Source: a virus (lineage: Duplodnaviria; Caudoviricetes). From it: a stretch of DNA of 64,000 bases. The number at the start of each line of letters is the position of its first letter. The stretch's first letter is position 1. Position numbers and translations under genes: made by a program. Shown piece by piece: positions 5,072 through 30,547 of this stretch. Below the pieces are notes generated by a model. That model saw nothing but the letters and a program-made list of their open reading frames with translations, had not been told where the DNA came from and searched no databases. The stretch is taken from IMG/VR virus record IMGVR_UViG_3300012983_000033, positions 32,001 through 96,000 of that record, one strand, 5' to 3'.

Positions 5072-5082
5072 GGCCGCACACC

Positions 5083-5340
5083 TCACTTTAAAAGGTTCAT
5101 ACAATCAAAAATTGTTGTGCGGAAGTATTCGTATTTTAAATAACGAAGACTTGATAATTTATAATATAGAATATAATAGTTAATTGTTTTTTCTTCATCA
5201 GAATATCCTAAAAGTTCAATTAGAATGGAATCAAGAAACTTCTCCCATTCACGCCCCTTTTCAAACTCACAAAGAAGTCCAAACATTTTGCTTTTTAACT
5301 TATTGTTATATGCTTCTTGCATTGCAGGTACTTTTTCCAT
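5083..5340 (-). CDS. Hypothetical virion-module protein
   Basis: 85 aa ORF tightly packed in the operon with an RBS. Confidence 0.7.
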   Translation of the reverse strand: MEKVPAMQEAYNNKLKSKMFGLLCEFEKGREWEKFLDSILIELLGYSDEEKTINYYILYYKLSSLRYLKYEYFRTTIFDCMNLLK

Positions 5341-5342
5341 TA

Positions 5343-5768: not shown

Positions 5769-5786
5769 TAAAATTCCTCCTTATCA

Positions 5787-6248: not shown

Positions 6249-6283
6249 AATGATACTCTCCTTTTATCTCGTAGATTTTAGTA

Positions 6284-6312
6284 AGAGGGGAGGAAGTCCT
6301 TCCTCCCCTCGT
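6284..6312 (-). terminator. Intrinsic terminator after the capsid gene
   Basis: GAGGGGAGGAAG / CTTCCTCCCCTC GC-rich hairpin. Confidence 0.7.
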
Positions 6313-6325
6313 TTTATATCAAATA

Positions 6326-7426: not shown

Positions 7427-7445
7427 TTCTATTTACCTCCTCTGA

Positions 7446-8015: not shown

Positions 8016-8036
8016 AATCAAAAACCTCCAATAAAA

Positions 8037-13724: not shown

Positions 13725-13728
13725 TTAA

Positions 13729-13971
13729 TCACTTCCCTTTAACAGTTTTCTTCATAACATCAAGTATATCTACTCTAACTGCTGGTTTAAGTTGAATAAA
13801 TTTGTCATACATCTCTGAGAAAACTTCTTCAAAATCTCTGGTTTTTTCAATATCATTATCTTCCGTAAAAGGAACACAAAGCATTTGAGCAATACCAATA
13901 AACTCAATTAATGTCATTTTAGATAAATATTTAACAAAGCGTTTTATTTCTTTATGTGTAGCTTGTTCCAT
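13729..13971 (-). CDS. Hypothetical protein
   Basis: 80 aa ORF with GGAGG RBS. Confidence 0.7.
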   Translation of the reverse strand: MEQATHKEIKRFVKYLSKMTLIEFIGIAQMLCVPFTEDNDIEKTRDFEEVFSEMYDKFIQLKPAVRVDILDVMKKTVKGK

Positions 13972-13986
13972 TTTAAAAATCCTCCT

Positions 13987-15333
13987 TTAAGATTTCTTGC
14001 GCTCACGGTCTGCTTTATCACAACATTTGCAACGATTAGTAAAACCGTCTTTTGCGCGACTTTTTCTAACAAAATTATAAGGGTCTCTTAAGAGGAGACG
14101 GCGGCAAGTATTACATTCCTTAAACTCCTCTGGGAAAAATAAATTCTCACAAACTCTTAAATGATATTTCGCTGCTTCAACTATAGCGGGAATAATTTTC
14201 TGGCGGAATATAGTTGAAATATAATTAACAGTATATGATTTGCCATACTTAGAGTTTATGGCGGCCGCAATCTACTAATTTTGATTACCCTTAATCTTAA
14301 AGTCAAGAATTTCTCTTTGGACTTCATTAAGTTCGGCAATCTCAACATAATACCATAGTGTGCTAAGGAAATTAGCAGTAGATCTATTTAGCGTTTCACG
14401 GTCGGCCGCATCTTCTAAGTCAGAAATCTATAAGAAAGCATTATAGATATGCTCTACCTCAAAAAAGTCAAAATAGTTAGATTCTGGGCGTTCTCTATGC
14501 GACCAAATTAGTCTAGAGAGTTGTTCAAGCTCTTTCTCGGAAAAATTCTTTGGTACAACCTCTGTAAGGGGCTTAAATAGTTTTTCTGAAACGAACCCCG
14601 GGGTTTTTATGCCTAAGGGAAAAACGGGAATATCTGCATCGAGAACTGGCTCAAAGTCTTTTGGATTTTGAGGGAAGCGACCTTGGCTGGAGTCGCGCAT
14701 TAGTAGGTTAGAGTATGAATCTTTGAATTGATATTGCTGTTGGCGCAATTCTACGAGAAGATGGCGCAATTTGAGATAGTGGTATTGTGATAGTTTTTCG
14801 GCTTTTGCTTTTAGAAGAAATTGATCTTCTTCTGTAAAACGTTGGAGAAGTTCTTCTCGTGGAGGATTTTTACGTTTATTGTGCGCGAGGTCATAAAAAT
14901 TGATGATGAGGTCGGTTTCGTCGATTTGACGGAAGAGAGCTTCGAGTTCGGGTAGAAGTGAAACGTCGATTTGCGCGCGGGCCTCATCTCGAGAGAAAAC
15001 GGTACGGGGAATTTTTGTACGAACTTCGCCCGGCCGCATAATTGTGTTTTCATCGAAGGTAGGGGATTCAATTAGTGCGTCGAGAGATTCGACATTTTCA
15101 GAGTTTGACCATAGTTTCGATTTAGTATCTATCTCAAACTCTTTTCGTTGTACGGCGTTTTTGCCGTCGTCTCTATTTTTACCCCATAGTATATAGTTTG
15201 ATATAGTTTCTAATTCTTCTTTAGAGGGAGGGGTAGTAACGAATTGTTGTTGTGTTAGGTAGTTATTGACGAAGTCTGCGCGCTCGTCAATAAATTCGAG
15301 GGAAAAATCAAGTTTTAGTCTATTATAAGCCAT
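13987..15333 (-). CDS. Sigma-factor-like/HTH regulator with C-terminal Zn finger (TAG-recoded)
   Basis: Reads through TAG 14428, 14275 and 14272. LNEVQREILDFKIKGNQN-QQ-IAAAINSKYGKSYTVNYIS resembles a sigma region-4 HTH; C-terminal CNTC...CKCC. Confidence 0.6.
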
Positions 15334-15353
15334 ATTAGTAGGCCTCCATATTA

Positions 15354-15382
15354 TAAGTAGAGTAGTAAGAAGAGAAGTAAAC
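15354..15382 (-). promoter_or_regulatory. Putative phage-specific (late) promoter, GTTTA-N18-TACTTA
   Basis: The same TACTTA element with an 18-nt spacer recurs at 51710, 55969 and 60714. Confidence 0.45.
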
Positions 15383-15458
15383 AAAGGGTTAGTAAAAAGT
15401 TTTAGATGTGGATTAAGGTCTTTACTTACCTGTTTACTTTTTCGTTCTTCCTATTAAA

Positions 15459-15487
15459 AGTATACTAAAATTTTAGTAGTGTGTCAA
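15459..15487 (-). promoter_or_regulatory. Sigma-A promoter for the regulator/morphogenesis operon
   Basis: TTGACA-17-TATACT on the minus strand. Confidence 0.7.
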
Positions 15488-15893
15488 ATTTTTTTATCGG
15501 AAATTAACGGGGAGGGAATAGTTGGCGGGTCCCATTTTGAAAAATTCATTTCGTGGGGAATTGTTTTCAGGGGATTACGATTTAAAACAGAACATTTATT
15601 CAGTTTTCTAAATTACTCCCCCGTACATTTGTTCGGTAAATGTCAATAATAATAAAATTTTCTGAAATCGGTTGCAGTCGCAAAATATTGCGAAATTTGC
15701 CCATTAAATTAATTTTCTATTTCAAGCGGTTAAATTATACCATAAAAACAAAAATGCGTTTATGGGCGTATTTTCGCAACATTTCGGAAATAAAAAAATT
15801 TTTAAAAAAATCAAAAAAATTTTAAAAAAAGTATTGACAATATAATTTTATTGTGATATACTTGTATCAAGATAAAGAAAGGCGGTCATCAAT

Positions 15894-16298
15894 ATGACAT
15901 CAACACAATTCAAAGCAATTCAGACAACAGAAAACTATAACAACGGACAAAAGGCAGAGCAGATCGCCCGCTTTAATATGACGGGTGAATTTTGCAAGGC
16001 AGACAACAAAAAAGCAACAGAGTGCGGCGACTGTATGGGCTATCAAATCAAATCTGCAAGAGCCACAATCTGCAAGGGTACAGACATCGCAGCCCACATC
16101 GAAAGCGACGCAGCAATCGGTTACATCTACATCACAAAAGAGCTTGTAGCCTACACAATGAGCAAAGCCGAATATCTTGAGTTTGCAACACTGTTCGCAA
16201 CGCTCACAAGAGAGAGCACCAAGAACGGCGGAGCCGAAAAGATGAGATTCAAAAGCGAAAGTAAGACACTTCTTGAGTGGCTCAGAGCAAGAGCCTGA
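15894..16298 (+). CDS. Hypothetical protein, PD-(D/E)xK-like (GD...YQIK)
   Basis: Promoter and RBS; motif NG..AE...GDCMGYQIKS. Confidence 0.65.
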   Translation: MTSTQFKAIQTTENYNNGQKAEQIARFNMTGEFCKADNKKATECGDCMGYQIKSARATICKGTDIAAHIESDAAIGYIYITKELVAYTMSKAEYLEFATLFATLTRESTKNGGAEKMRFKSESKTLLEWLRARA

Positions 16299-16350
16299 GC
16301 CACTCCCACAAACCACAACAACAATAACAATACAAAAGGAGATAATTAAA

Positions 16351-16533
16351 ATGGATAAATTTGAAAAGGTAATGTTCACAATCACAGCAGTAATAATCGC
16401 AGGTATAATTGCTTTAGCAATATGGGCTTGCGTAGAGTGTGCAGGCACTGATGTAGATACAACACTCACAAACACAAACACAATCATCACAAGTACAAAT
16501 GCGATAATCAATACGGTTAGAACAGTGTTCTAA
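16351..16533 (+). CDS. Small membrane protein
   Basis: AGGAG RBS and one hydrophobic helix. Confidence 0.6.
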   Translation: MDKFEKVMFTITAVIIAGIIALAIWACVECAGTDVDTTLTNTNTIITSTNAIINTVRTVF

Positions 16534-16797
16534 CCGTAAACCTTTATTATTAAAACGAACATTTGTTCACTCATATAAACGAACATTTGTTCACTTCATC
16601 TTGCCCGGGCGACCCGCTTTAGCGAGTTAAAGCGTTAAAGCATAAGGAAGCCCCGCTTTCACGCTTTAAAGCGTTAAAGTGTCAAGTACCACAATGAGCA
16701 AAGTCCCATTAGTTGGACTATGTATATATGATGTATTGTATATTAGGTGTAAGTATGTTATACTATGTATGTAATCAAGAGAGATTGAAAGGAAGTA

Positions 16798-17256
16798 ATG
16801 ATAATGACAAAAGCAATATACTTTGATATGGATGGCACAATCGCAGACTTATATGCAGTTAATGATTGGTTGCCTATGTTAAGAGCCTATGACCCTAAAC
16901 CCTATGCACAGGCAAAACCACTTGTAAATATGCAAGTGTTAGCAAGGTTGTTAAACAGATTGAAAGCAAATGGTTATCACATTGGTATTATCAGTTGGTT
17001 ATCAAAAGAGAGTACAACAGAGTATGACAATGCAGTAACAAAAGCAAAGATTGAATGGCTTAACAAACATCTTAAAAGCGTTGAATGGGATGAAGTCAAC
17101 ATAGTTGCTTATGGTACACCAAAACAGAACATCGTCACTTATAACAATGGTATCTTGTTTGATGATGAACTTAATAATCGAGTTAATTGGGTAGGTACTG
17201 CATACGATGTTGATAACATCATTGAAGTATTAAAAGGGGTATTACATACAATGTAA
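16798..17256 (+). CDS. HAD-family phosphatase (5'(3')-deoxyribonucleotidase-like)
   Basis: YFDMDGTIAD motif I and LFDD motif IV. Confidence 0.8.
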   Translation: MIMTKAIYFDMDGTIADLYAVNDWLPMLRAYDPKPYAQAKPLVNMQVLARLLNRLKANGYHIGIISWLSKESTTEYDNAVTKAKIEWLNKHLKSVEWDEVNIVAYGTPKQNIVTYNNGILFDDELNNRVNWVGTAYDVDNIIEVLKGVLHTM

Positions 17257-17378
17257 TATCCCTATTGCCCTACAAGGGCGGGCGGTGATGAAACACGCGG
17301 GTCAGTTGTAATTATAATGATAAAAAGACTTGACAAAAAGATATATATATGATATAATATATATGTAATAAGAAAGGG

Positions 17379-17585
17379 GTGTTATATATGACAGAACTTG
17401 AAAAAATGATTGATGTACTTGAAAAAAGTGGATATAGAAGAAACAATGGCTATTTTGTGCAATATGGTATTGAAAGAGATACTCTCACAATTTATAAGGA
17501 AGTTAGGGTAGATTGGTATTCTACTGAAACAATTGAAACAAATTTTGAGTATAACAAAATGGGTGAATTAGTTGAAATTTGGTAA
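17379..17585 (+). CDS. Hypothetical protein
   Basis: Promoter at 17330 and RBS. Confidence 0.65.
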   Translation: MLYMTELEKMIDVLEKSGYRRNNGYFVQYGIERDTLTIYKEVRVDWYSTETIETNFEYNKMGELVEIW

Positions 17586-18624
17586 AGGGTGAAAAATATG
17601 GAAAAATATCAGAAAATCAATAATCAAATTCATAAAGTAAATTATAAAATTTTTAAAAAGGCAAATGAAATCTATTACGGAAATTTTCCGAAATTTTTCA
17701 AAAATTTTCTTTTAAAGAAATATTGCAAAAAGATGAAAATTTCTGTTGATGATTTTATGATGTGGGAAAAATTTTGTTGAATTTTTCCCAAAAATCTGCC
17801 CGCTTTAGCACTTTAAAGCGTTAAAGTGCTCGGGCAGAAAATACCGAACATTTGTTCGGTTGCGTTAAAAAATTTTTTTACATTTTTTCTAAAAAAAGTA
17901 TTGACAAAATAAAATTTATGTGTTATAATAATATCAAGATAAAGATAAAAAAGGAGATAAAAAATTATGAAAAAAATTCTTAAAGTGATAATTCTTCTTG
18001 TGGCAATTGTTGGAACTTTTTGGTACACTATGGATAATTTGCACATTACAGTAAACACAGAAGAAAAGGGTGCAATGGTGGAATGTTTTGGTCAAGTGTG
18101 GTATCACGAAGTAGAAATAATTTAAAAAATTTCTACAAAAGGTATTGACAAGTCGGACAATATATGATATAATAATTACAGAAAGAAACGAAAGGAAGAT
18201 AAAAATGTTTACAGTAGAAGTTAGAAAAGATTGGCACTCAGATTGGGAACTTTGGGGAACTTATTCAACACGAAATGAAGCAAACGAAATGGCAATAATT
18301 GCTCTTGAAGAAAATGTTGATGTTTTCGTTGAAGAAATTAAATAAAAAATTTCTTCAACTTTTTTCCAAAAAACTATTGACAAATGCCCGCTTTTATGAT
18401 ATAATAGTATCAAGATAAAGGAAAGGAAATGATAAATATGACACTTACAAGAAACGAAAAACACTATCTCACAGAAATGCAGATTGATTGGGTTGAAAGA
18501 TTTGGAAGAACTCCCACAAAAGAAGAAATGGAAAATGCAATAAAAAATTTAAGAAAAAGGGGTTGACAAACAACTCTTTTTATGGTATAATAATTACAGA
18601 AAGAAACGAAAGGGGTCAATTAAA

Positions 18625-18807
18625 ATGACAGAAAAAAGACAGAAATTACTTGATAGAATAATCCGTATTTATGGTTACGAACACGAAATCACAATTGATT
18701 TTGCAAAGATGTGTGAAAACTATCCTAACGGAGAAAATTGTGAAAAGGCACTTGAAACACTCGTAAAAATCCACGAAAGTAGACCTTACACAGAAGACGA
18801 TGAATAA
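18625..18807 (+). CDS. Hypothetical protein
   Basis: Own promoter and RBS. Confidence 0.65.
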   Translation: MTEKRQKLLDRIIRIYGYEHEITIDFAKMCENYPNGENCEKALETLVKIHESRPYTEDDE

Positions 18808-19071
18808 TCGTCTTTTATTTTTACGAACAAACCGAACATTTGTTCGGTCTGCCCGGGCGAGCACTTTAGCGGTTTAAAGTGCTAAAGTTTAAATGCGGTC
18901 GCTCTTCCACAATACCATTATATCACAATATAGTCAAATAGTCAATAGTCAAAATGCACAAATATTTTTTCTTTTATTTGTGCAACTTTTTTTGAAAAAA
19001 AGGGTTGACAAGTCCGTCAATATATGGTATACTATATATGTAATCAAGAGAAACGAAAGGACTTGAAGAAA

Positions 19072-19554
19072 ATGACAAAAGACTTCGCAAAGGCAAATCT
19101 CATCAACAGATATACAAAGGGTGCATACACAGACAACTATATTTTCGGCTTTGTTCGTGACGGTTTTGTGTGGGCTTGTATGGTAGAAAATGCAGACAAT
19201 ATCATCAGTGAAGTCAGTTTTGCAGAAAAGCGTTCAAAAAATGGTTGGGTACTTCGTTACAGACCAACAAAGACAATGCAAGACATCATCATAGCAAATG
19301 CAAAAGAAATCAAAGTTTTATATTCAACTTCTGTAATGGAAAGCGAAAAAGAAAATCACAAGAAAAATCGTGGTTATATGTTTGAAGATATCTGCACAGA
19401 AGTTTGGAAAGGCACACAGACAGAAGAAAATCTTGACTTCACAAAAGGTGGTGACATCATAATAAATGGTGTACACTATCAAGCAAAATTCGGTTGTTCA
19501 AAAGGTGCGGCGACTTTCTCAAGTGAAAAAACATTGTTAAATCTTGGCTTATAA
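19072..19554 (+). CDS. Hypothetical protein, PD-(D/E)xK-like (GGD...YQAK)
   Basis: Promoter at 19004; motif NRG..FE...GGDIII...YQAKF. Confidence 0.65.
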   Translation: MTKDFAKANLINRYTKGAYTDNYIFGFVRDGFVWACMVENADNIISEVSFAEKRSKNGWVLRYRPTKTMQDIIIANAKEIKVLYSTSVMESEKENHKKNRGYMFEDICTEVWKGTQTEENLDFTKGGDIIINGVHYQAKFGCSKGAATFSSEKTLLNLGL

Positions 19555-20009
19555 GTCAAGATTTAACGGAAAGGATTCGATATGTATAATACTGAAATGT
19601 ATATGAATATATATAAGAAATTCGGAAAGGATTCCGAACAATTGAAGCGATTCAAAAAGTACCTTGCCATTTATATGAATAAACCCCACGTAATGGAACG
19701 CATTTATAAAGCCATTATGAAAGAAACTTCATCGCTTTAATGCGGTAAAGTGTGCCCGGGTGCAACCGAACATTTGTTCGATGCCCGGGCGGATGAAACG
19801 CCAGGCACCGTTGTAGAATTGAAAAAAGTTTTTAAAAAGGGTTGACATTTTTATCATTATGTGGTATAATAATAATGTCAAGAGGAGATGGAAACAGTCT
19901 CCAAGCAGTAATGGGTTGAGCCTCTGCGGTGAGTAGTCAGACGAAAATCTTTAAAAAAAATTCAAAAAACCTCTTGACAAATAGCACGAGATGTGCTATA
20001 ATATAAATG

Positions 20010-20185
20010 TAAGGAAGAGAGTTGGCAGACCGAAGAGGTTGCCCACGAGAGCAAGTAAGACCAACTCGCCAAAGACTTCCTACCGCAAGGTATGTAGGTT
20101 TGCGGTATAGAAATGTGAACCAGTGCCCAAAGGCTGAAATAATTTGGGATGATGCCTACTATAAAGCCACTAACTGCCTTTCTTT
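20010..20185 (+). ncRNA. Putative structured small RNA
   Basis: Promoter at 19974 with no credible RBS/ORF; nested stems AGGAAG/CTTCCT, GAGTTGG/CCAACTC, TACCGCAA/TTGCGGTA, CCCAAA/TTTGGG. Confidence 0.55.
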
Positions 20186-21060
20186 AATATTCATTTTTTA
20201 TTTCCTTTTGAGAACGAGCTTGAGCTATACGCTCAGGCTCGCGCTCGTCTGCGCCCGGGCGGCCGCAGCATTGTGCACAAAAATTTCGCATAAGTTTGTG
20301 CATTTTGCATATTGACTTTTATATTATTATTTGATATACTATATATAGAAAGCGAGGGGTCAAAATGGAATGGTTTGAAAAACTTTTCTTTACACTCATA
20401 TTCATTAACTCAATTATGTGCTTGTGTGGTTTAGGATATGCGATTTTTTTATTTTGTGTAAATTATTTTTAAAAAAGACTTGACAAACTTTTAAAAGTAT
20501 GATATAATATATATGTAATAAAGATAAACGAGGTAACGAAAATGCTTGAAAAAAATAAAGAAAAAGAAAAAAGAAGAAATCGTGATACTTGGGTTGGTTA
20601 CTTCCCACGAGTAACAAAAGACAAAAAGAAATATTCACGAAAAGAAAAACATAAAGGAAAGGAAAATTACTGATATGGAATTTATGAAAATCGCAACTGC
20701 AATTATCGTTGGTATTTATATTTTACTTGATTGGCTTTTCACTATATCAAAAAACTTTGAAGATTTTTCACGAAAAGATTATCTCAAATGTTTTATTGAG
20801 CCTTTTTGTTTAATAGGCATAGTTTTAATTGCTATGGAATTATGGGGGTAATAAAATGAAAAATGAAATTATACAAAGATTTGCAGATAATGGATATAAT
20901 CCCATTCACTTGTTTGGTAATTGGTATTTAATCAGACATAAAAGCAAAAACTATTGTAAAATAAGTTATTATAAATTAAGAAAATTTTAAAAAAACTCTT
21001 GACAAAATATCAAAACTATGATATAATAAATACATAAAAAAAAGAAAGGAATTGATATTT

Positions 21061-21327
21061 ATGTCACTCGTTGTTAACTCAAAAGACACAATAGAAAACA
21101 AAACACATCTTTTCGGAGATTATATGGCTTTCCTCGATGATGATGGCGATTTTTGGCTTATTGATGAAGAAGATGAGTATGTTACTCGCTTAACTGACAG
21201 GGGTTGTATTTGTCAAAACACTTCTGAATATGACACTATCGAAGATTTTTTACGCGTAAGTTTTGGTTGTAAACTTGTAAAAGTTTTCAACAAAGTTGAA
21301 GATTTTAAAATCGTTATTGAATGTTAA
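21061..21327 (+). CDS. Small acidic protein
   Basis: Promoter at 20999, RBS, followed by a TGTAAAGG/CCTTTACA hairpin. Confidence 0.7.
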   Translation: MSLVVNSKDTIENKTHLFGDYMAFLDDDGDFWLIDEEDEYVTRLTDRGCICQNTSEYDTIEDFLRVSFGCKLVKVFNKVEDFKIVIEC

Positions 21328-21488
21328 AACTGTAAAGGCGAAAGCCTTTACAGCGCCCGGGCGTTTTCGTCAATGTATACAAAAATTTATTCATATTGTG
21401 GAAAATTTTTTACTTGACAAAACTAATATTATATAGTATAATATATATGTAATCAAGAGAAAATATGAAATTCAAAGGAGAAAAAATT

Positions 21489-21914
21489 ATGAAAAAAATC
21501 GAAATCTTTATCAATGGTCATCTTTATCAGGGAAATTATGATATTCTTAAAGACGCACTTGACAAACTTGAAAAATATCGCAAGACTTCTTTTCTTTCAA
21601 AACCTTTTATTGCTTCAGAAGTTGAAGTTAATGGTTCAACTTTGGGAAGTCTTTGCAGAATGGGACTTATCACAAAAGTTGGTGAAAGAAAAGTATGGTG
21701 TCAGATAAACGAAGATACTATGAAATTGCAGTCAGTCAATGAATATCTTATAGTCAGAGATATTGACTATTTTAAAACAGAAGTTAATAAATGGGTTGCT
21801 CGTCACTATACAGATAGAATTGCTTGTCTTAAACATAACATCAGGATAGCAAACGAAGAAATGCAGAAAGTTCTTCTTGAAATAGCAGAAATGGGAATAG
21901 AAATGGGGATCTAA
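21489..21914 (+). CDS. Hypothetical protein (possible winged helix)
   Basis: Promoter at 21414, GGAG RBS; STLGSLCRMGLITKV. Confidence 0.65.
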   Translation: MKKIEIFINGHLYQGNYDILKDALDKLEKYRKTSFLSKPFIASEVEVNGSTLGSLCRMGLITKVGERKVWCQINEDTMKLQSVNEYLIVRDIDYFKTEVNKWVARHYTDRIACLKHNIRIANEEMQKVLLEIAEMGIEMGI

Positions 21915-22054
21915 TCCCCATTTTTTCTTATATAGAAACGAACATTTGTTCGCGCCCGGGCCGCGGCAATTTGCACAAAAGTTTTTTGAAATTGGGGAAA
22001 ATTTTCGTCATTTTGACGATTGACTTTTCATTAAAATTTTGATATAATAATATT

Positions 22055-22120
22055 GTTCTTGAGAGGGGAATGAGTTCCTAAAAGGTGAGCAGTAAGCAAG
22101 CCTTTGTTCTCTCAAGAAAA
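22055..22120 (+). ncRNA. Putative small RNA (multi-stem hairpin)
   Basis: Promoter at 22020 with no ORF; TTCTTGAGAG/CTCTCAAGAA closing stem enclosing two short stems. Confidence 0.45.
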
Positions 22121-22356
22121 AAATAAAAAAACTTTAAAAAAAACTCTTGACAAAAATAAAAATCTATGATATAATATATATGTAGTTGAGAGAGAAAGAG
22201 AAAAAATCAAACGAAAAAAAAATTAAAAAAAAGTTTGAAAAAACTCTTGACAAATAACACAAAATGTGTTATAATATATATGTAATCAAGAGAGAACACT
22301 CTCTATGAAATAAAAATAGGGTGATGACCAACATCAACGATAGAAAGGAAAAAATT

Positions 22357-22731
22357 ATGACAAAAATGACACAGAGAGAATTTCTTATGGAAGTTAAGAA
22401 AGCAAACATCAGTGACGCACTTAACGAAAAAGCAGATGAACTCATCGCAGGTCTTGACAAGAGAAATGCACAGAAGTCTGCAACACAGACAAAAACACAG
22501 AAAGAGAACGAAGTTCTCAAAGCAGAAATGCTTAATAAACTCGAAAAAGGCAAGGGTTATCTTGCAGTCGAAATCGCAAGTGTAATGGGCTTTTCAACAT
22601 CAAAGGCTTCTGCACTCGCAAAGCAGTTGGTTGACAGTGGCAAAGCAACTGTTTGTGATGTAAAAGTAAAGGGTAAAGGTATGCAGAAATGCTACACACT
22701 CACTCTTGCAACTGATGAAGTTGCAGAGTGA
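22357..22731 (+). CDS. Winged-HTH protein (paralog of 29470..29811)
   Basis: MTQREFL...A.EIA...STSKASALAKQLVDSG...KVKGK. Confidence 0.7.
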   Translation: MTKMTQREFLMEVKKANISDALNEKADELIAGLDKRNAQKSATQTKTQKENEVLKAEMLNKLEKGKGYLAVEIASVMGFSTSKASALAKQLVDSGKATVCDVKVKGKGMQKCYTLTLATDEVAE

Positions 22732-22941
22732 TGCCCTAAAAATTGAAGTGAAGTAGGGTGGCAATAGTCACCCTATTTTTTAACTTTAGCACTTTAACAC
22801 TTTAAAGCGGTGAAGCGCCCGGGCCGCGTGAAACACGAGGGTCAGTTGTGGTTTAAAAAATTTTTTATAAAAAAGACTTGACAAATTCAAAAATTTCTGC
22901 TATAATATATATGTAATCAAGAGAAGAAAGGAAATGATGAA

Positions 22942-23406
22942 ATGAATTTGATTATCTCTTTTATCGTACTGAATATTATCAATGTTGTTATTCAGACAGT
23001 AAAATCTATTGCTACAATTAAATGTGGTAAGTTGGTCGCAGCGATAGTAAATGCAGTCGCTTATGGTTTATACACAGTAGTAGTTGTGTATATGGTTTGT
23101 GAACTTCCTTTGTGGTTTAAAGTTCTTGTAATTGCAGTCGCTAATCTCATAGGTGTTTATGTGGTTAAGTGGGTTGAAGAAAAAAATCGCAAAGACAAGT
23201 TATGGAAAGTTGAAGCAACAGTAAAAGATGTTGCTTGTTACGAAGAACTTACAGAAATGGGAATTTCTTGTAATTGTCTTTACATTACAAATGGTGGTTA
23301 TATTGTAAACTGTTTTTGTCCAACACAAAAAGAAAGTGCAATAGTCAAGAAAGTTCTTGATTCTTATAATGCAAAATATTTTGTAACTGAAAGTAAAACA
23401 TTATAA
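22942..23406 (+). CDS. Membrane protein (DUF5698-like)
   Basis: Three hydrophobic segments followed by a soluble C-terminal domain. Confidence 0.55.
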   Translation: MNLIISFIVLNIINVVIQTVKSIATIKCGKLVAAIVNAVAYGLYTVVVVYMVCELPLWFKVLVIAVANLIGVYVVKWVEEKNRKDKLWKVEATVKDVACYEELTEMGISCNCLYITNGGYIVNCFCPTQKESAIVKKVLDSYNAKYFVTESKTL

Positions 23407-23423
23407 TAAAGGAGAGTAAAAAA

Positions 23424-23708
23424 ATGAAAATTATTGACACAAATGACGCAAACAAGGTAAGAGTTGAAAGTATTCCTGAAGGAGTTGCTTTCAGACACGA
23501 AGGAAAATACTTTTTAAAAACAGCAAATGTTTTTACCTATGCAGATGTTGACGATTATCTTGATGAATATACTCATCTTCGTAATGTTGACGAACTCGAA
23601 GAATATACTGATTATTACAACGCTTTAATTCTTTCAGTTGGTGGTTTTTGTTACATAAACGAAGATACACTTGTTGAGCCACTTCATACAGAACTTCACA
23701 TTGTGTAA
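23424..23708 (+). CDS. Small acidic protein, repeated paralog family
   Basis: Similar to 26402, 27853 and 28463. Confidence 0.7.
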   Translation: MKIIDTNDANKVRVESIPEGVAFRHEGKYFLKTANVFTYADVDDYLDEYTHLRNVDELEEYTDYYNALILSVGGFCYINEDTLVEPLHTELHIV

Positions 23709-23874
23709 AGGGATTTCCCTTTACACTTTTTTTATACGAACATTTGTTCGCGGGCGCGCCCGGGCACGTTGTGCATGTTGCACAAAAATTCTGCCGAAAT
23801 GTGGAAAATCTTTTACTTGACAAAATTGTATTTATGGTGTATAATATATATGTAATAAGAAAGGAGTGTTGCTA

Positions 23875-24246
23875 ATGGCAAAGTCACAGAAGGTCTTGAA
23901 TGACGAAATCAAGTCACTTTACTTCACTAAAGTAAAAGAAATGCTTGAAGGTCTTGGCGAAGATGTTATTCAGGTCAAATCAAATGAGATCGCTTTTCCT
24001 GTGGTTGATAGCGAAGGCAACGAAAAATCTGTTGTAATCGTTATAAAAGTTCCCACTGGTGCTAATAAGGGAACAGAGCCTTATGATCCTTACGCAATGG
24101 GCGAAGAATTTCAGTTGAAGGAAAAACTGAAAAAAGAAAAAGCCGAAAAAATGGCGAAGGCAAAAGCCGAAAAAATCGCAAAGGATAATGCAAGGCGAGA
24201 AAAAGAAAAAGAAATAAAAGCCAAGCGAGAAGGTGTAAAGGTGTAA
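23875..24246 (+). CDS. Lys/Glu-tailed protein (near-duplicate of 25836..26219)
   Basis: MAKSQK.LNDEIK...KSNEIAFP..DSEGNEKSVVIVIKVPTGANKGTEPYDPY is shared. Confidence 0.8.
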   Translation: MAKSQKVLNDEIKSLYFTKVKEMLEGLGEDVIQVKSNEIAFPVVDSEGNEKSVVIVIKVPTGANKGTEPYDPYAMGEEFQLKEKLKKEKAEKMAKAKAEKIAKDNARREKEKEIKAKREGVKV

Positions 24247-24419
24247 GCCTTTACACTTTTTTTATCTTTCCCGCTTTAGCACTTTAAAGTGCGAAAGCGT
24301 ACCCGGGCGCGCCATCAAAATGCACAATAATATATAGTAAACTTTGTGCAATATTACATATTGACTTTTTATGTATAATAGTGTATAATAAATACATCAA
24401 ATGAAACGAGGTTATAAAA

Positions 24420-25064
24420 ATGATTGAAAAATTTATTGTGCTTGACACAGAAACAACAAACGATATTGAATGCCCCATTGTATATGATATTGGTTTTGCA
24501 GTAATTGACAAGAGTGGATTTGTCTATGAAAAATTTTCTTTTGTGGTTGCAGATGTTTTTCTTAATGAAGAACTTATGTCAAGTGCTTATTTTATTGAAA
24601 AAATTCCTATGTATTGGGAACAGATAAAAAAAGGTGAAAGAGTTTTAAAAAGACTTTACAACATAAGAAAAGTTATAATTGAAATAATGATGAAATATAA
24701 TACAAAAATTGTAATTGCACACAATGCACGATTTGATTATATTTCAACTGCGACCACTCAAAGATATTTGACAAAATCAAAATACAGATACTTTTTCCCC
24801 TATGGCACAGAATTTTGGGATACTTTAAAAATGTCTAAAGAAGTTTTTAAAGATGACGAAGATTATTGTGCATTTTGCACAGAAAACGATTATCTCACAA
24901 AGAATAATTCAGTAAAATTGACTGCTGAAATTCTGTATAGATATTTAACAAATGATAATTCTTTTATCGAAAGTCACACAGGTCTTGAAGATGTGCTAAT
25001 TGAAAAAGAAATTTTTGTTGAATGTGTACGAAGAAATCCAAATATCAATGGCAAACTTTGGTGA
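24420..25064 (+). CDS. DEDDh 3'-5' exonuclease (DnaQ-like)
   Basis: VLDTET, AHNARFD, DTL and HTGLED motifs. Confidence 0.85.
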   Translation: MIEKFIVLDTETTNDIECPIVYDIGFAVIDKSGFVYEKFSFVVADVFLNEELMSSAYFIEKIPMYWEQIKKGERVLKRLYNIRKVIIEIMMKYNTKIVIAHNARFDYISTATTQRYLTKSKYRYFFPYGTEFWDTLKMSKEVFKDDEDYCAFCTENDYLTKNNSVKLTAEILYRYLTNDNSFIESHTGLEDVLIEKEIFVECVRRNPNINGKLW

Positions 25065-25201
25065 GTTTGCCCATTGACTTTTGGCCGGGCATTCGTCAAT
25101 ATGCACAAAGGGACGACCGCAAGTTTGGTGATTTTGACGATTGACAAAAGTATGATTATGGTGTATAATAATATTGTAATAAAGAGAAAGGAACTAACGA
25201 T

Positions 25202-25555
25202 ATGGAAAGAATTACTAAAAAAGTTTTAAAAGAAGAAGAATTTTTTGTAGCAAGAGATGGCAAGGAATTTGAAGATGAGGGAGAATGCCTTGACTATGAA
25301 AATGAATTAAACATCAAATCCATTGAAGCATACGATGAAGATTTCAACAGAATAGACTTTGACAGTGCAACATATGTTGTTATTCATTCTGATGAAGAAC
25401 TAAACCTCATTTGTGAAGTGTGTGATTACAATGGTTGGACTTCAGATGGTCTTTGTGAAAATGGTCTTTACAGATATAATAGTTCTTGGAGAGATGACAG
25501 ATGGGAAAAAGTCAAAATCCCTTATTTCCTTAAAGACTTTGTTGAGTTCATCTAA
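25202..25555 (+). CDS. Hypothetical protein (paralog of 56041..56439)
   Basis: DGKEF.D....L.YE motif. Confidence 0.7.
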   Translation: MERITKKVLKEEEFFVARDGKEFEDEGECLDYENELNIKSIEAYDEDFNRIDFDSATYVVIHSDEELNLICEVCDYNGWTSDGLCENGLYRYNSSWRDDRWEKVKIPYFLKDFVEFI

Positions 25556-25835
25556 GGGTGTAAAGGCGTAAGCCTTTACGTGCCCGGGCGCGGCACTTTA
25601 GCACATTAAAGTATTAAAGCGAACATTTGTTTTGTTAATATAAACAAAAATTTGTCTTAGTAAAATTTATTTTTTTAAATTTTTAAACTTGACAAAATTT
25701 AAAATTTTTGATATAATATATATAGAAAAGTTAAGAAAAAACAAAATAAAAAAATAAAAAACTTTTTGAAAACCTATTGACAAAAGCAATTAAATGTGCT
25801 ATAATATGTATGTAAACGAAAGGAGATTTGATAAT

Positions 25836-26219
25836 ATGGCTAAATCACAGAAAATTCTTAATGATGAAATCAAAGCAAACTACTTTGAAAAAATTTGGGG
25901 TTTCCTTGAAGAACTTGGTGAAGATGTCATCAAAGTAAAATCAAACGAAATTGCGTTTCCAATCTGCGACAGTGAGGGTAACGAAAAATCAGTAGTCATT
26001 GTCATTAAAGTACCCACAGGTGCAAACAAAGGCACTGAACCCTATGACCCCTATGATATGGGTGAGGAATACGAACTCAAAGAAAAAGCAAAAAGGGAAA
26101 AGGCAGAAAAACAAGCCAAAGCCAAAGCAGAAAAGATTGCCAAAGATAAAGCAAGACGCGAAAAAGAAAAGGCAATCAAAGAAAAACGCGAAAGTCGAAA
26201 TGAGGTGAGTGGTGAGTAA
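25836..26219 (+). CDS. Lys/Glu-tailed protein (near-duplicate of 23875..24246)
   Basis: See the paralog; promoter at 25777. Confidence 0.8.
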   Translation: MAKSQKILNDEIKANYFEKIWGFLEELGEDVIKVKSNEIAFPICDSEGNEKSVVIVIKVPTGANKGTEPYDPYDMGEEYELKEKAKREKAEKQAKAKAEKIAKDKARREKEKAIKEKRESRNEVSGE

Positions 26220-26401
26220 TCACCACTCAAACACTCCCACACTTTAACAGTTTAAAGCGTAGCGCTTTAGTGCGCGAAAGCGCGCCCGGCGTTCGTCATT
26301 CTATACAAATCAACCGCCGCATCTTTGTGCATTTTAACTGTTGACAAACTTACTAATCTATGTTATAATATATACATCAGATGAAGAAAGGAAATGATAA
26401 T

Positions 26402-26671
26402 ATGAAAGTAAATAAACCCACTATTAAAGGCGAAAAATTTTACAGAATGTGTATAGGTTCAACCTTTTTCGTAGGTGACGCAATTTATATGCGATTGGGT
26501 TATAACGAATGTCAGTATATAGAATGTACTGAATGTTCAACAATGAATGACATTGAAGAAACAGGTTACTACGCAGTAAATCTTGAAACAGGCGAAGTAA
26601 GACAGTTTGAACCAGACGACTGTTTTGAAATGTGTAATTGTGAAGTAACAATCGTGGATGTAAAGGTGTAA
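26402..26671 (+). CDS. Small protein with CxxC insert, repeated paralog family
   Basis: G.TF...DAIYMRL...CTEC...YAVNLETG...F. Confidence 0.7.
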   Translation: MKVNKPTIKGEKFYRMCIGSTFFVGDAIYMRLGYNECQYIECTECSTMNDIEETGYYAVNLETGEVRQFEPDDCFEMCNCEVTIVDVKV

Positions 26672-26953
26672 ACCTTTACACTCCCGGGCGTTCGTCAGAA
26701 TGCACAAAAATTTAATGTATTTTTCTATGTATTTTTACTTGACAAAATAACAAAAATAGTGTATAATAATATTGTAATCAAGAGAAACGAAAGGAGTTTT
26801 GAAAATGGATAGACAGTTATTAGTTGAATGTCCCATACAAGACCCAAGTTGTCCTTATTGGGATTGGAAAACCCATAAATGCACAATGCCTTTATCAGGT
26901 TTACATCCCATAGATGAATGTGATGATTATTATGCAGAAGTGGGTGATGAAGA

Positions 26954-27136
26954 ATGACAAGAGAACTTGCAAACAAAGCAAGTCTTGCTTTGCAGGGTGT
27001 TGACGATTTTCGTATGTTCATAGATGAAATTGAAATACTTATTGATGAATGTGAAGTCTTTGACTTTCGTGATAAGTTAATGAATTTTCTTGATAAAGAA
27101 CTTGAACGCAGAGAAGAAATTTTAAAAAATTTATAA
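26954..27136 (+). CDS. Hypothetical protein
   Basis: 60 aa ORF in a transcription unit. Confidence 0.6.
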   Translation: MTRELANKASLALQGVDDFRMFIDEIEILIDECEVFDFRDKLMNFLDKELERREEILKNL

Positions 27137-27204
27137 AAAACACTTGACAAACAATGAAAAGTGTGATATAATATATATGTAATAAAGAAAAGGAGATGCT
27201 AATT

Positions 27205-27471
27205 ATGTCAAGAACTTATTATTGCCCTAAAGAAAGACTTGTGTTTGTATCAGAGGAAGATACAAGAAACTTTTTCTTCGAAGAACAGGTTTACACTTCT
27301 ATGGAATACGAAGGTGATTTTGAAGATTTTCTGTCTGATAAATACACAAGAGCAGATATTTTCAGAATGACAGATGAAGAAAAAGCAGAAGTTCTCGCAG
27401 ATTACCACGAAGTGCTTTTTGAACAGTGGTGTGATGAAGAACTCGAAAGTTGCGACATCTACGCAGATTAA
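27205..27471 (+). CDS. Small acidic protein
   Basis: Promoter at 27144, GGAG RBS, terminal hairpin. Confidence 0.7.
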   Translation: MSRTYYCPKERLVFVSEEDTRNFFFEEQVYTSMEYEGDFEDFLSDKYTRADIFRMTDEEKAEVLADYHEVLFEQWCDEELESCDIYAD

Positions 27472-27852
27472 ACGAAAAGGTGTAAAGGGATACCCCTTTA
27501 CACCGCCCGGGCATTCGTCATATTGACTAAAATTATGCGGTCGCCGCATTGTAAGTTTGGTTAATATGACGATTGACTTTTCTTTTATTATGGTGTATAA
27601 TAGTATTGTAATCAAGAGAAACGAGGTAAAGAATTATGTTATCTGTTGAAAATGTAAGTTATGACTTAATGTTAATCTCACTTGCAAAACAATTGGGTGC
27701 AGAAGTCGCAGTGGAGTTTGCAGAATTTGTTGTTGCTTCTGGTGACCATTTCGCAATTCAAAAAAAATATGAAGAAATTTTAAAAAACCACTTGACAAAC
27801 ACATAAAACTATGCTATAATATATATGTAATCAAACGAAAGGACTTGATAAT

Positions 27853-28152
27853 ATGGCACTTAATATCAACATTGAAAAAAAGACAGAAGATGTCACTTAT
27901 TTTGGTGATATTCGCAGAGGGGAGTTCTTCCTTTTAGGTGGCAAGGTTTTTGTGAAACTTGAAGAATTTTTTATCACAGACGAAATCATAACAGAACTTG
28001 AATACCAACACGATTTGCAACACGAGTATGACATCGACTCTAACAGGTATAATTGTTGGTTGGTTGGTAGTGAATGTGATTATCGCTATTTTAATAACAC
28101 TACAATAGTTGAAAGAGTTAATATTGATATGAATGTGAGGTATGCAGAATGA
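27853..28152 (+). CDS. Small acidic protein, repeated paralog family
   Basis: FGDIRRGEFF...VFVKL. Confidence 0.7.
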   Translation: MALNINIEKKTEDVTYFGDIRRGEFFLLGGKVFVKLEEFFITDEIITELEYQHDLQHEYDIDSNRYNCWLVGSECDYRYFNNTTIVERVNIDMNVRYAE

Positions 28153-28466
28153 GAGCAACAGGAATTGTAAGAAGAATTGATGATTTGGGAAGAGTTGTAA
28201 TCCCTAAAGAAATTCGCAGAGAAATGAGAATAAGAGAGGGCGATCCTCTTGAAATCTTTGTTGACAAACGAAATAATCTTGTTTGTTTTCAGAGATACGA
28301 TGTTGAAGAAAACTTCATAGAAGAACTGAAAAGAATTTCTGATTCAATTTCAGAACATTATTGTTATAGTGACAACAAAGAAAATGTTCAGATTATTAAA
28401 ATGGCAATCGAAGAAATTAAAAATCAGTTTATCGCAATAAAAGAAAGAGAGGAAAACGAAATATGA
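28149..28466 (+). CDS. AbrB/SpoVT-family DNA-binding protein
   Basis: MRATGIVRRIDDLGRVVIPKEIRR.MRIREGDPLEIFVD is the canonical AbrB/SpoVT N-terminus. Confidence 0.92.
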   Translation: MRATGIVRRIDDLGRVVIPKEIRREMRIREGDPLEIFVDKRNNLVCFQRYDVEENFIEELKRISDSISEHYCYSDNKENVQIIKMAIEEIKNQFIAIKEREENEI

Positions 28467-28717
28467 AAATTCAGAGAAAAAGAAAAGAAAAAGTTTTATT
28501 AAGAGATCTTTCTTTTGGTGATGTATTTGAATATAAAGATTATTTCTATATGGTCATCAACTTTGCAGAAATCGTCGACTGTTCAATATGTGGTGAAGAA
28601 CTTGATGTAAATCACTGTTATAATATTGCTTGTGTTGACTTGCAGGAAGGCGATGTTTATAATTTTAATGGTTGTGATGAAGTATACAAAGTTAATGGCA
28701 AGTTCATAGAAGATTAA
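28463..28717 (+). CDS. Small protein with CxxC insert, repeated paralog family
   Basis: DLSFGDVF...YMVI...CSIC...ACVDLQEG...F. Confidence 0.7.
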   Translation: MKIQRKRKEKVLLRDLSFGDVFEYKDYFYMVINFAEIVDCSICGEELDVNHCYNIACVDLQEGDVYNFNGCDEVYKVNGKFIED

Positions 28718-28992
28718 GAAGTCGAAAGACTTCTTTTTTCTTATATCAAAACGAACAAATGTTCGCGCGTGCCCGGGTAAATTGCCCGGGCGTTTTTGTA
28801 GTATTGCCCGGGCCGAAAAAGTCAAATTCTATCCCATTATATTATATCATATCCACGCTGTAAAGTCAATAGGTAAAAAAAATTTTTTGCTTTAGCGAGT
28901 TAAAGTAGTAAAGCGAACATTTGTTCGTCAAGTGGCGTCCCCTCGTCAAATTTTGCCCTACCTGTGGCGCGTGTCAAATTTTAATTCTGATC

Positions 28993-29106
28993 AAGCTGCG
29001 ATCGAGCTGCGTTTCAGCTGGAGCTGCAAGCTGCGCCCGGTGTCAAATTTTATGGCAGCTGCGTCGAGCTGCAAATTTTTATTATAGTAATACAGCTGCA
29101 GCTGTG
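28993..29106. repeat. Cluster of AGCTG(C) and GTCAAATTT short repeats
   Basis: About nine AGCTG copies within roughly 115 bp; GTCAAATT at about 28820, 28945, 28973 and 29042. Confidence 0.7.
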
Positions 29107-29469
29107 AAAATTTGAAATTAAAATAAAAATATGTTATATATAACATAAATTAAAAGAAAAATCAAATTTTAGTCGCAATCAGTTGTATATATGAAATACC
29201 GAGGCCGCGCAGAATTTGAAAATATTATAAAATAGGTATATAATTATTATAGAAAGTGAGAGAGAAATATATAGAATATAGCAACAGTCACTCTACTTAT
29301 CAGTCGTTAATTGATAAGAAATAGAGATACGAAACTTGAAAAAAGTTCAAAAATGCTATATAATATATATAGAAAGTAAGAGATAAAGTAAATAAAACTT
29401 ACTGCTCCCTTACTTCTGAAACTAATAAAAAATTTTTGGGTGGCGACCGACGCTGAAAGGAAATGTATT

Positions 29470-29811
29470 ATGACAAAGAGAGAATTTCTTACACAGGTAA
29501 TCGCAGAAACAGCAAACGCAGAAATCAAAGCATTTGCAGAAAAGGAAATCGAAAAGCTCGATGCAGAACTTGCTAAGGCAGCAGAAAAGAGAGCTGCTAA
29601 GAAAGCAGAAAATGCTCCCCTCGTTGAAGCTCTTCAGGCAATCCTTACAGAGGAACCTATGACAGCATCTCAGATTGCAGAACAGGTAGAAGGCATCAAT
29701 AACGCTTCTAAAGCAACAGTTATCGCTAAGATTCTTGTTGAATCAGGCGTGGCTTCTGTAACAGAAGTTAAGGTTAAGGGCAGAGCAGTAAAAGGCTACT
29801 TCAAAGCCTAA
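29470..29811 (+). CDS. Winged-HTH protein (paralog of 22357..22731)
   Basis: MTKREFL...MTASQIA...SKATVIAKILVESG...KVKG. Confidence 0.75.
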   Translation: MTKREFLTQVIAETANAEIKAFAEKEIEKLDAELAKAAEKRAAKKAENAPLVEALQAILTEEPMTASQIAEQVEGINNASKATVIAKILVESGVASVTEVKVKGRAVKGYFKA

Positions 29812-29840
29812 TCGCTAAACAAATAAGTAAGTAAGTAAGC

Positions 29841-29890
29841 TAAGGGACTATCCAAAAGGATAGTTCCTTTTCTTTTTATTTTTTTTTGCT
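29841..29890 (+). terminator. Intrinsic terminator ending the plus-strand block
   Basis: AAGGGACTATCC/GGATAGTTCCTT hairpin followed by a long T tract. Confidence 0.7.
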
Positions 29891-30547
29891 TAAAATTTGA
29901 CAAGCATTTTTTTATTTTAAAATTTGATTTGTCGATGTGTTGCGGGCTGGCAACTTTTACCGTTTATCAACCCTTTTTCCATATCATTTTCCATACGCAA
30001 GCACCGTTTTCCACGTGGTTTTTACCGTTTTTCCATACTGTATGGTTCTGATCCACCCGTTTAGTTTACTGTCTGAGCTGCTCTTACGTAGAGTCCCTTT
30101 GGGGAGTCGCTTAGCGGAACCCTTTGGGTAGCCCTTTGGGTAGGAGCGTAGTCGAAGCTTCGAAGCGCCAAGCGACGCTCCGTACAACGGTTTTTTTCGC
30201 ACAAGAAAAGTTAGCCCCCAACGCACATCGACTTTTAATATCCCCTTATCCCCTATCCCCCTATTTTTCGCTTAGCTCCTTTTAATATCCCCTCCTTATA
30301 GATTGGCTGATAAGCCCCTCCAATGGGCTTCGCCCAAAGGAGAGGATTTTATTTTTCTGCTAAGCACCTGCTTAGTAAGGCGCGGCCGTCCCCTTTTCGA
30401 AGCAAAACCATAAGTAAAAAAATAGGAGAAGGGTTATCCCCTCCTCCCGTAGTTTTATCGTAGGTTTATTGTGAGCTCGAGCTAGACCCCTTTTTGCTAA
30501 GCCCTTTGCTTAAAGGCGCTCAGGGCGCTGTCATCTTCCTATCGTTT

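Follow-up and report, generated by a model that had tools for sequence, protein, structure and literature searches.

In large phages, the anti-host and anti-defence genes that evolve fastest reside in early takeover regions, and how such regions function under constant reshuffling is understood only for T4-type phages. The question is raised anew by a stretch of 64,000 nucleotides (the window), which comprises bases 32001 - 96000 of the virus record IMGVR_UViG_3300012983_000033. About 13 kb of the window is a dense array of small genes, and an all-GC palindromic octamer, GCCCGGGC, recurs in the spacers between them. What kind of region is this array, how does it change, and what is the octamer for?

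The complete genome is a single 139,671-bp contig with a G+C content of 34.6%. The ends of the contig overlap by 65 bp, giving a circular assembly, and its completeness is rated 100%. The phage is an uncultured, virulent siphophage of the gut or rumen with a genome of roughly 140 kb. In the reading that we favor, with a probability of about one half, the block at 15.8 - 28.9 kb would be an early region read by the host RNA polymerase and composed of cassettes of the promoter-early stem-loop (PeSL) type, described for T4-type phages by Arbiol et al. (PMC2839356). The octamer would be the recognition site of a protein.

The promoter array and its octamer

The array occupies positions 15834 - 28813 of the plus strand and contains about 33 small genes, two or three non-coding units and 27 strong predicted promoters of the sigma-A type. 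The genes were listed together with their Shine-Dalgarno sites, the region was scanned for promoters and terminators, and the repeats were grouped into families D1 - D20. The promoters, which have A/T tracts upstream, comprise 21 perfect TTGACA-N17-TATAAT sites and six near-perfect ones; 21 of the 24 perfect sites in the genome fall at 17330 - 27820. Nearly every gene or gene pair has a consensus promoter of its own. The original prediction described a repeating grammar of promoters, a shared leader, hairpins and boxes, and these elements were recovered as repeat families. A promoter-plus-leader repeat of 55 - 90 bp is present in 19 copies; another module, 100 bp long, combines octamer, operator and promoter and occurs four times. 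The CTTTAGC/TTAAAGC boxes form a further family. Terminator-like sites number 35, compared to 6.6 in shuffled sequences; they lie upstream of most unit promoters, and many have no U tract. Six TGTAAAGG..CCTTTACA hairpins on the plus strand (21331 - 27504, with starts at 21331, 23704, 24234, 25559, 26659 and 27481) were found in the terminator scan and as repeat family D17.

The complete genome contains 12 exact copies of GCCCGGGC, all of them at 16603 - 28813 of the window. Dinucleotide shuffles contain 0.11 copies on average and never 12, and when 8-mers are compared with an order-3 Markov model of the genome, none is more over-represented than the octamer. The array block also holds 16 of the 18 CCCGGG sites in the genome. 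With six one-mismatch copies (17828, 19754, 24301, 25083, 26682 and 28771) and, near 26283, a form shortened to 7 nt by a deletion, the overall total is about 19, which is the number originally claimed. All 18 exact and one-mismatch sites are intergenic. That the motif might be equally frequent elsewhere is contradicted both by these counts and by the related 172-kb contig G001, in which 26 of the 27 copies lie in a 19-kb array (G+C 45%) and the 27th at the other end of the contig.

The first exact copy (16603 - 16610) has two CGAACATTTGTTC boxes before it and CTTTAGC boxes after it. Next come the one-mismatch copy GCTCGGGC (17828 - 17835), which is exact GCCCGGGC in the close relative L019, and an exact copy at 18851 - 18858. 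At 19754 - 19790, GCCCGGGT and GCCCGGGC are arranged around a CGAACATTTGTTCG box as a compound inverted repeat, and a -35 box is positioned 51 nt downstream. The same distance of 51 nt separates the next -35 box from the exact copies at 20253 - 20260, 21355 - 21362 (2 nt after a TGTAAAGG hairpin) and 23758 - 23765. It is 53 nt for the exact copy at 22817 - 22824, and 52, 50 and 49 nt, respectively, for the variants ACCCGGGC (24301 - 24308), GGCCGGGC (25083 - 25090) and TCCCGGGC (26682 - 26689). The last of these directly follows a TGTAAAGG hairpin, as do the exact copies at 25582 - 25589 and 27505 - 27512, and the exact copy at 21954 - 21961 comes after a CGAACATTTGTTCG box. Overall, the octamer lies 49 - 53 nt upstream of the -35 box at nine promoters of this genome, one-mismatch variants included. 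The triple cluster predicted for the end of the array is real. It consists of GCCCGGGT, GCCCGGGC and GCCCGGGC (28769 - 28813, with copies at 28771, 28784 and 28806), and the array is closed by a terminator-like hairpin in which the first and second copies form a stem of 11 bp with a T run behind it.

About 100 related loci, many bearing JGI (Ga…) accessions, were gathered from viral and metagenome collections by a pattern search and two protein-anchored searches. The same grammar recurs throughout a clade of uncultured phages in which the TAG codon is recoded, and it provides 290 distinct octamer contexts. The flanks of the octamer are symmetric, Y-GCCCGGGC-R, with T or C at position -1 in 255 contexts and G or A at position +8 in 253. 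This symmetry argues for recognition of duplex DNA by something that has two-fold symmetry itself. Folding of the contexts revealed no consistent RNA pairing of the octamer, which is thus not part of a shared RNA structure; a role as part of an RNA hairpin was rejected for this reason. A hairpin does end 0 - 5 nt upstream of the octamer in 119 of the 290 contexts, compared to 7 of 279 controls, and in L129 and L131, which have 18 copies in 9 kb, each copy reads CGCCCGGGCG and follows a hairpin. The octamer sequence is kept in arrays whose G+C content ranges from about 33 - 35% (this genome and L004) to about 45% (G001). Its distance to the -35 box is typical of each phage: in G001 it is 21 - 25 nt, while L048/L070 have distances of about 31 and 61 nt. 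Six copies, in some relatives, are placed inside the spacer that separates the -35 box from the -10 box.

The array is thus made of repeated regulatory cassettes that flank mostly ORFan genes. A cassette has a hairpin or terminator, boxes that are interchangeable, a UP-like tract rich in A and T, consensus -35 and -10 boxes, a shared leader and a ribosome-binding site. The octamer is the most conserved box of this grammar and would be a duplex site with two-fold symmetry recognized by a protein. It is located where the end of one transcription unit meets the control region of its successor, or, in some relatives, within the promoter spacer itself. We infer an operator or boundary site to which a phage early protein binds, controlling or insulating early transcription. 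A protein-binding signal, which was among the roles originally proposed, is the reading of the octamer that appears to fit the data best.

Several observations weigh against this reading. The octamer had been predicted to bound the units, and it does so at many junctions but not at every unit: for 13 of the 27 strong promoters in the window, the 110 nt upstream contain no octamer-like site, and several promoter-gene units in succession (17901 - 18807) are without one. Since half of the window promoters lack it, the octamer is not a general operator of all early promoters. Across the clade its distance to the -35 box spans 10 to 65 nt. Degenerate copies and 1-nt slippage of the C and G runs are tolerated among close relatives, so that single sites are not under strict constraint. 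Two complete relatives, G003 and G005, have no octamer. It is also absent from all of the more distant loci among the relatives examined, and in these octamer-free phages, such as L012, L016 - L018 and the Enterococcus phage EF1, the terminator hairpin overlaps the -35 box.

The octamer might instead act physically, without a dedicated protein, as a rigid GC clamp that limits DNA opening or curvature from the upstream edge of very AT-rich, very strong promoters, and as a terminator stem when doubled. In agreement with this, it always has a hairpin on one side and a UP-like, AT-rich tract on the other, the region's strongest terminator-like hairpin (28769 - 28793) is made by two adjacent copies, and degenerate copies suffice in relatives. 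However, a clamp needs no exact sequence, whereas the octamer and its symmetric flanks are kept over 290 contexts at about 33 - 45% G+C. The slot is not used by other GC-rich strings; GGCGCGCC of L004, considered as an alternative junction motif, was rejected because it arises where two slipped octamer copies adjoin. No consistent fold is seen for single copies, and those within promoter spacers fit an operator better. We consider a purely physical role unlikely.

It is also quite improbable that the octamer has no function and is a relic of an ancestral cassette joint, spread by duplication and homogenized by gene conversion. In favor of a relic, multiplication and exchange of the cassettes are evident, relatives have between 0 and 33 copies of the octamer, and slippage variants exist. 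Yet the octamer and its symmetric flanks are conserved between contexts in which the surrounding sequence is not, and it persists in phages whose arrays have hardly any cargo in common and are about 10 percentage points apart in G+C content. The fixed, phage-specific spacings likewise speak against a relic.

A second over-represented all-GC palindrome, GCGGCCGC, was rejected as an alternative junction motif, as it occurs genome-wide and mostly inside genes. There are 9 copies in this genome (those in the window are at 14261, 20259 and 49330, the others outside it), 25 in G001, 9 in G003 and 14 in G005. It is thus present in relatives without GCCCGGGC as well, and in G000, G001 and G005 it is about 10 - 16 times as frequent as an order-3 Markov model predicts.

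The array also has eight GAACATTTGTTC palindromes at 16557 - 28926, which start at 16557, 16581, 17846, 18834, 19768, 21940, 23738 and 28915; the related GAACAAATGTTC is at 28753. None occurs elsewhere in the genome. They fit CGAAC-N4-GTTCG, which we take to be the LexA-box (SOS) pattern of Firmicutes, and are mostly positioned just upstream of an octamer and off the promoters. Related boxes that read cgaacatatgttc are present in L014 and L005.

The vicinity of these LexA-like boxes would suit an octamer that is read by a host factor or tied to host defence. It could be the site of a host regulator, a decoy or sink for a restriction or modification enzyme of the CCCGGG type, or a pause signal for stepwise DNA injection. 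Its core, CCCGGG, is a classical restriction site. Outside the array, however, CCCGGG occurs twice, against about 3 - 4 copies expected (an estimate from base composition), and this gives no sign of restriction avoidance. As for DNA entry, the array may enter the cell first; the ends of the L019 contig coincide with those of the array and the takeover genes of the Bacillus phage SPO1 reside in a 13.2-kb terminal repeat (PMC10531801), but nothing links the octamer to genome ends. Of the explanations considered here, we regard this one as the most improbable.

Gene exchange within the array

The cargo of the array consists mostly of ORFans. Pfam and PHROGs gave no match for most array genes, and most have homologs only in L019, a 13.7-kb contig that is about 95% identical to positions 15570 - 30038 of the window. 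Within these 13 kb the two phages differ by six gene-sized deletions or replacements, which bears out the predicted modular and fast-changing character of the block. One gene is replaced from its start codon to 4 nt past the octamer at 16603. A deletion of 418 bp lies between two identical 28-bp repeats of the -10 box and leader, and another lies between two -35 boxes. Two genes are swapped; the exchanged stretch starts at the start codon or in the leader and reaches the following UP tract. Finally, a 94-codon gene has been lost with an end at a TGTAAAGG hairpin.

The same pattern is seen when rearrangements are pooled. Eleven close pairs provided 104 rearrangement ends, which are not independent of each other. 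Promoter and leader zones contain 46 of the 104, whereas 19% are expected at random (P about 5e-9). Only 8 of the 104 are within 12 nt of an octamer-like site, where the expectation is 3.4% (P about 0.03). Nevertheless, some joins are exactly at an octamer. L005 and L030 carry different inserts of 0.7 - 1.1 kb at an octamer of L004, flanked by GTCCGGGT and GTCCGGGC, and L051 has a 3.6-kb insert with an end on an octamer of L049. A further insert of 618 bp, with an ORF that by eye resembles a homing endonuclease, is present in L004 (4198 - 4816) and missing from L005 and L030; it is unrelated to octamers.

Could the octamer then be a recombination site, that is, the core of a site-specific crossover, or the target at which an endonuclease-like protein of the array nicks or breaks DNA, driving exchange or recombination-dependent replication? 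The exact joins in L005, L030 and L051 and the 2.3-fold enrichment of ends within 12 nt speak for this. Furthermore, one downstream module recurs behind different upstream modules, and the arrays encode a PD-(D/E)XK protein with conserved residues of the catalytic type. On the other side, 92% of the ends are off the octamer, the best-resolved events are in promoter and leader repeats, and microhomology would bring some junctions to any conserved 8-10-mer in the spacers. The genome, rated 100% complete, has no match to Phage_integrase (PF00589, tyrosine recombinases) or Resolvase (PF00239, serine recombinases). An endonuclease that cuts the phage's own DNA at 12 - 27 sites would call for protection, of which nothing is visible; the two methyltransferase families searched, PF00145 and PF01555, are unmatched. 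We hold a recombination site to be distinctly unlikely.

The proposal that the octamer is the core of an integron-like system did not survive these comparisons. Integron cassette arrays (attC/IntI) resemble the region in that small exchangeable genes alternate with sites that can form hairpins and have a short conserved core, and in nothing else. Here, in contrast, no integrase of the tyrosine or serine family was found in the genome, the cassettes have promoters of their own, and the junctions are mostly off the core. The hairpins differ in sequence between units and are unrelated to each other, unlike those of the attC type. The analogy thus fails on every defining feature tested. Instead, the region is shufflable through the entire repeated regulatory cassette, mainly its promoter and leader, as in PeSLs. 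Recombination between repeats of 30 - 100 bp deletes, duplicates and swaps the intervening genes, which would account for the fast turnover of the cargo. Exchange would take place mostly in promoter and leader by the PeSL mechanism, with no need for a site-specific recombinase.

Candidate readers and other contents of the array

If the octamer is a protein recognition site, its reader may be encoded in the array itself. The best candidate, a tentative one that we still consider doubtful, is the product of the first array gene (15894 - 16298, plus strand), a 134-residue protein that resembles restriction endonucleases of the PD-(D/E)XK fold in its family alignment (A1) and predicted fold neighbors. 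Residues E20, D44 and K55 are invariant in 15 sequences and form the motif E..D..(S/Q/E)-x-K, whose middle position is S, Q or E. An AF2 model of the G001 homolog has a pLDDT of 89.9. Its neighbors in the PDB are HhaI (Z 6.8), NhoI (5.6), I-Ssp6803I (5.2), HinP1I (4.7) and MspI (4.5), followed at lower rank by PvuII, Hjc, DpnI and MutH; nearly all of the top ones are PD-(D/E)XK nucleases. The neighbor cluster of the family in the protein-language-model space of the Atlas carries PF25941 (PDDEXK_16). The family is small and unannotated, with 39 clusters among 5.8 billion proteins. Its profile found nothing significant among PDB sequences or in Pfam, and a tblastn search of phage records with the window protein gave no match.

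The distribution of the family follows that of the octamer to a considerable extent. The profile matches all three complete octamer-bearing genomes and neither of the two complete octamer-free ones, nor, save for one marginal match, any of 22 octamer-free loci. Members found by protein search belong to arrays with 3 - 18 octamers. In two independent phages, G001 and L055, the promoter of the family gene itself holds an octamer in its spacer. The case is weakened in several respects. The structural Z scores are modest (6.8 or below), and the Foldseek E values are at least 0.045. L133/L134 carry a member that is 57 - 63% identical to those of octamer phages, but have 0 copies of GCCCGGGC in 17.8 kb; there, the palindrome TTGTTTAAACAA occupies positions similar to those of the octamer. 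The octamer-rich partial loci L048, L070, L042 and L073 have no family member in the DNA covered. Finally, all co-occurrence of the octamer and the family is confounded by shared ancestry.

In L133, 11 copies of the palindrome, as (AC)TTGTTTAAACAA(GT), come after terminators at 4959 - 17479. The same locus has three TGTGGATAA repeats at 7195 - 7325, upstream of its restriction-like gene; these match the DnaA-box pattern.

HhaI, HinP1I and MspI, which read GCGC or CCGG, are PD-(D/E)XK enzymes that can serve for comparison. With the first-gene family they probably share the core fold predicted for it (Z 4.5 - 6.8), and they share the E..D..(Q/S/E)-x-K motif; they are small enzymes that read 4-bp GC palindromes. 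The Q-x-K form in the window protein is of the HinP1I type. The family members, however, are half the size (134 - 170 residues), have no detectable sequence similarity to these enzymes and no partner methyltransferase, and their putative sites are in the phage's own DNA. As to methyltransferases, the C5 (PF00145) and N4/N6 (PF01555) families, the only two searched, gave no match. A bolder and rather improbable idea is that the protein is a miniature nuclease that targets GCCCGGGC at cassette borders; nicking or cutting there might shut down the early region or drive recombinase-free exchange between co-infecting phages.

Two winged-helix-like paralogs, encoded at 22357 - 22731 (plus strand) and 29470 - 29811, are alternative candidates for the reader. 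Their cluster is present in all 25 octamer-bearing loci, but also in 15 of 16 octamer-free ones, and homologs have a weak HTH_24 match. An AbrB/MazE-type DNA-binding protein (28149 - 28466, plus strand; PF04014, 4e-11) was considered and rejected. It is present in G000, G001 and G006 and absent from G003 and G005, but is missing from octamer-rich loci; its absence from the full octamer arrays L127, L129 and L131 implies that it is not a general reader. The product of a duplicated gene was rejected as well, since the family is absent from the most octamer-rich loci. The duplication itself, which had been predicted, is evident: the copies at 23875 - 24246 and 25836 - 26219 (both plus strand; repeat D8) are 72% identical between 23944 - 24239 and 25905 - 26200. 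The first copy, with a Lys/Glu-rich tail, has no Pfam match and only viral hypothetical clusters in the Atlas.

Two more cargo genes of the plus strand have recognizable relatives. The gene at 16798 - 17256 resembles HAD-type 5'(3')-deoxyribonucleotidases (NT5C, 9e-5, below the Pfam cut-off; phrog_2643, 1e-10) and occurs in nearly all related loci. The gene at 24420 - 25064 resembles DnaQ/DEDD exonucleases (phrog_20187, 5e-37; phrog_192, 4e-6); it served as the anchor for fetching relatives and has homologs in 15 viral and 80 metagenome loci. Small ORFans accompanied by genes of the nucleotidase, exonuclease, AbrB and winged-helix types give the array the profile of an early takeover region.

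Some units appear to be non-coding. Two promoter-led units at 19842 - 20250 (plus strand) have no credible ORF, the only frame that the Shine-Dalgarno criterion does not exclude being a doubtful one that starts with TTG, and are candidates for small RNAs. Another promoter-led region without a credible ORF, at 22020 - 22320, may also encode a small RNA. Searched over 13 - 32 kb, Rfam gave only two chance microRNA matches and none for the small-RNA candidates. A tRNA-like sequence, recognized by eye, is located directly behind a consensus early promoter in the G001 array (L001, 3905 - 3990). On the minus strand, a near-consensus promoter at 18917 - 18945 is directed leftward toward an octamer, and a TTGACT-17-TATAAT promoter at 28841 - 28869 faces the terminal octamer hairpin. 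The latter has the signature CCCATTATAT..TATATCA, which also closes the arrays of L004 and L129, and may yield a short antisense RNA.

Just past the array, at 28930 - 29110, there is a non-coding block of GTCAAATTT and (C/G)AGCTGC repeats. Similar blocks are present in L013 (3800 - 3960) and L004 (from 11690), and the block is a candidate replication origin or genome end. The contig L019 spans exactly the array, its ends coinciding with those of the array; the 112.9-kb contig G006 starts and stops on an octamer, and many related contigs break inside the array. Such ends would be expected of a long terminal repeat, but also of assemblies that break at repeats.

The array differs in coding from the late genes, which require readthrough of TAG: there are 57 TAG codons in a giant frame of 3,297 codons and 23 in another of 3,578, and one example of a late TAG-containing frame ends at position 1316 of the window. 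A tRNA with the anticodon CTA is encoded on the minus strand (63354 - 63443) within a cluster of 13 tRNAs. The 33 array genes stop with TAA (24) or TGA (9), and none with TAG. The GC skew turns positive at about 14 - 30 kb, and the array is the only long plus-strand block between two minus-strand regions. The structural genes that adjoin it match Yon families of SPbeta.

Comparison with known systems

The nearest named relatives are the 140-kb Enterococcus phages EF1, H1 and VRE9 and phAss-1. The EF1/EF5/H1/VRE9 group (MF001358) and phAss-1, which stands for TAG-recoded gut siphophages of ~136 kb (PMC10607447), are comparable in genome size and also have a giant tape-measure gene, and their exonuclease genes are homologs at 26 - 38% identity; phAss-1 shares the TAG recoding as well. 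EF1 also has a dense array of near-consensus promoters before small hypothetical genes. Unlike the phage described here, however, EF1 has 0 copies of GCCCGGGC in 24.6 kb around the exonuclease homolog, even when one mismatch is allowed. The phAss-1 paper makes no mention of promoters, palindromes or early genes (PMC10607447).

A megablast search of the array against 50,697 phage records gave no match, and a literature search for the octamer GCCCGGGC returned only primers and unrelated uses. A parallel in Firmicutes is the host-takeover module of SPO1, in which 24 genes reside in a terminal redundancy of 13,185 bp (PMC10531801). Both regions are about 13 kb in length and belong to a large virulent Firmicutes phage; their early genes, around two dozen, are small, for the most part unique, and distributed over numerous short operons read by the host sigma-A polymerase. 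There is, however, no sequence relationship by megablast against the phage records, and the SPO1 module is part of a terminal repeat, a location at which the ends of the L019 contig only hint in the case of the array. We know of no GCCCGGGC-type junction motif reported for SPO1.

The cassettes themselves are most similar to the PeSLs of the T4-type phages phi1/RB49, PST and nt-1 (PMC2839356, PMC4122927). In both cases strong promoters of the host type, with an AT-rich tract upstream, are clustered in hyperplastic regions before ORFans; those of PeSLs are joined to stem-loops, as the ones in the array appear to be, and the insertions, deletions and replacements that distinguish close relatives end in the repeats. 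The overlap of hairpin and -35 box in the distant relatives L012, L016 - L018 and EF1 is a PeSL trait as well. The differences are equally clear. The promoters and ribosome-binding sites are in the Gram-positive style, and the phage is an SPbeta-like siphophage with TAG recoding. The cassettes form one contiguous 13-kb array rather than scattered regions. They have several interchangeable operator-like boxes and, in addition, an exact all-GC palindrome with symmetric flanks that lies outside the stem-loop.

The region thus appears to be a known design, PeSL-type cassettes in an SPO1-type takeover block, in a new lineage, to which an exact, symmetric GC palindrome bound to the junctions has been added. 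The same cassette logic would then operate in an unrelated, uncultured group of phages of gut and rumen Firmicutes. No described system explains the exactly conserved palindrome. If it is the operator of a global early regulator, it would give access to the timing programme in a group of phages for which we found no reported culture; if it is the target of the restriction-like protein of the array, it would represent a new mode of organizing gene exchange. Either way, the octamer is a cheap marker for early regions in metagenomic phage contigs, and it is the feature that sets these arrays apart from both the PeSLs and the SPO1 module.

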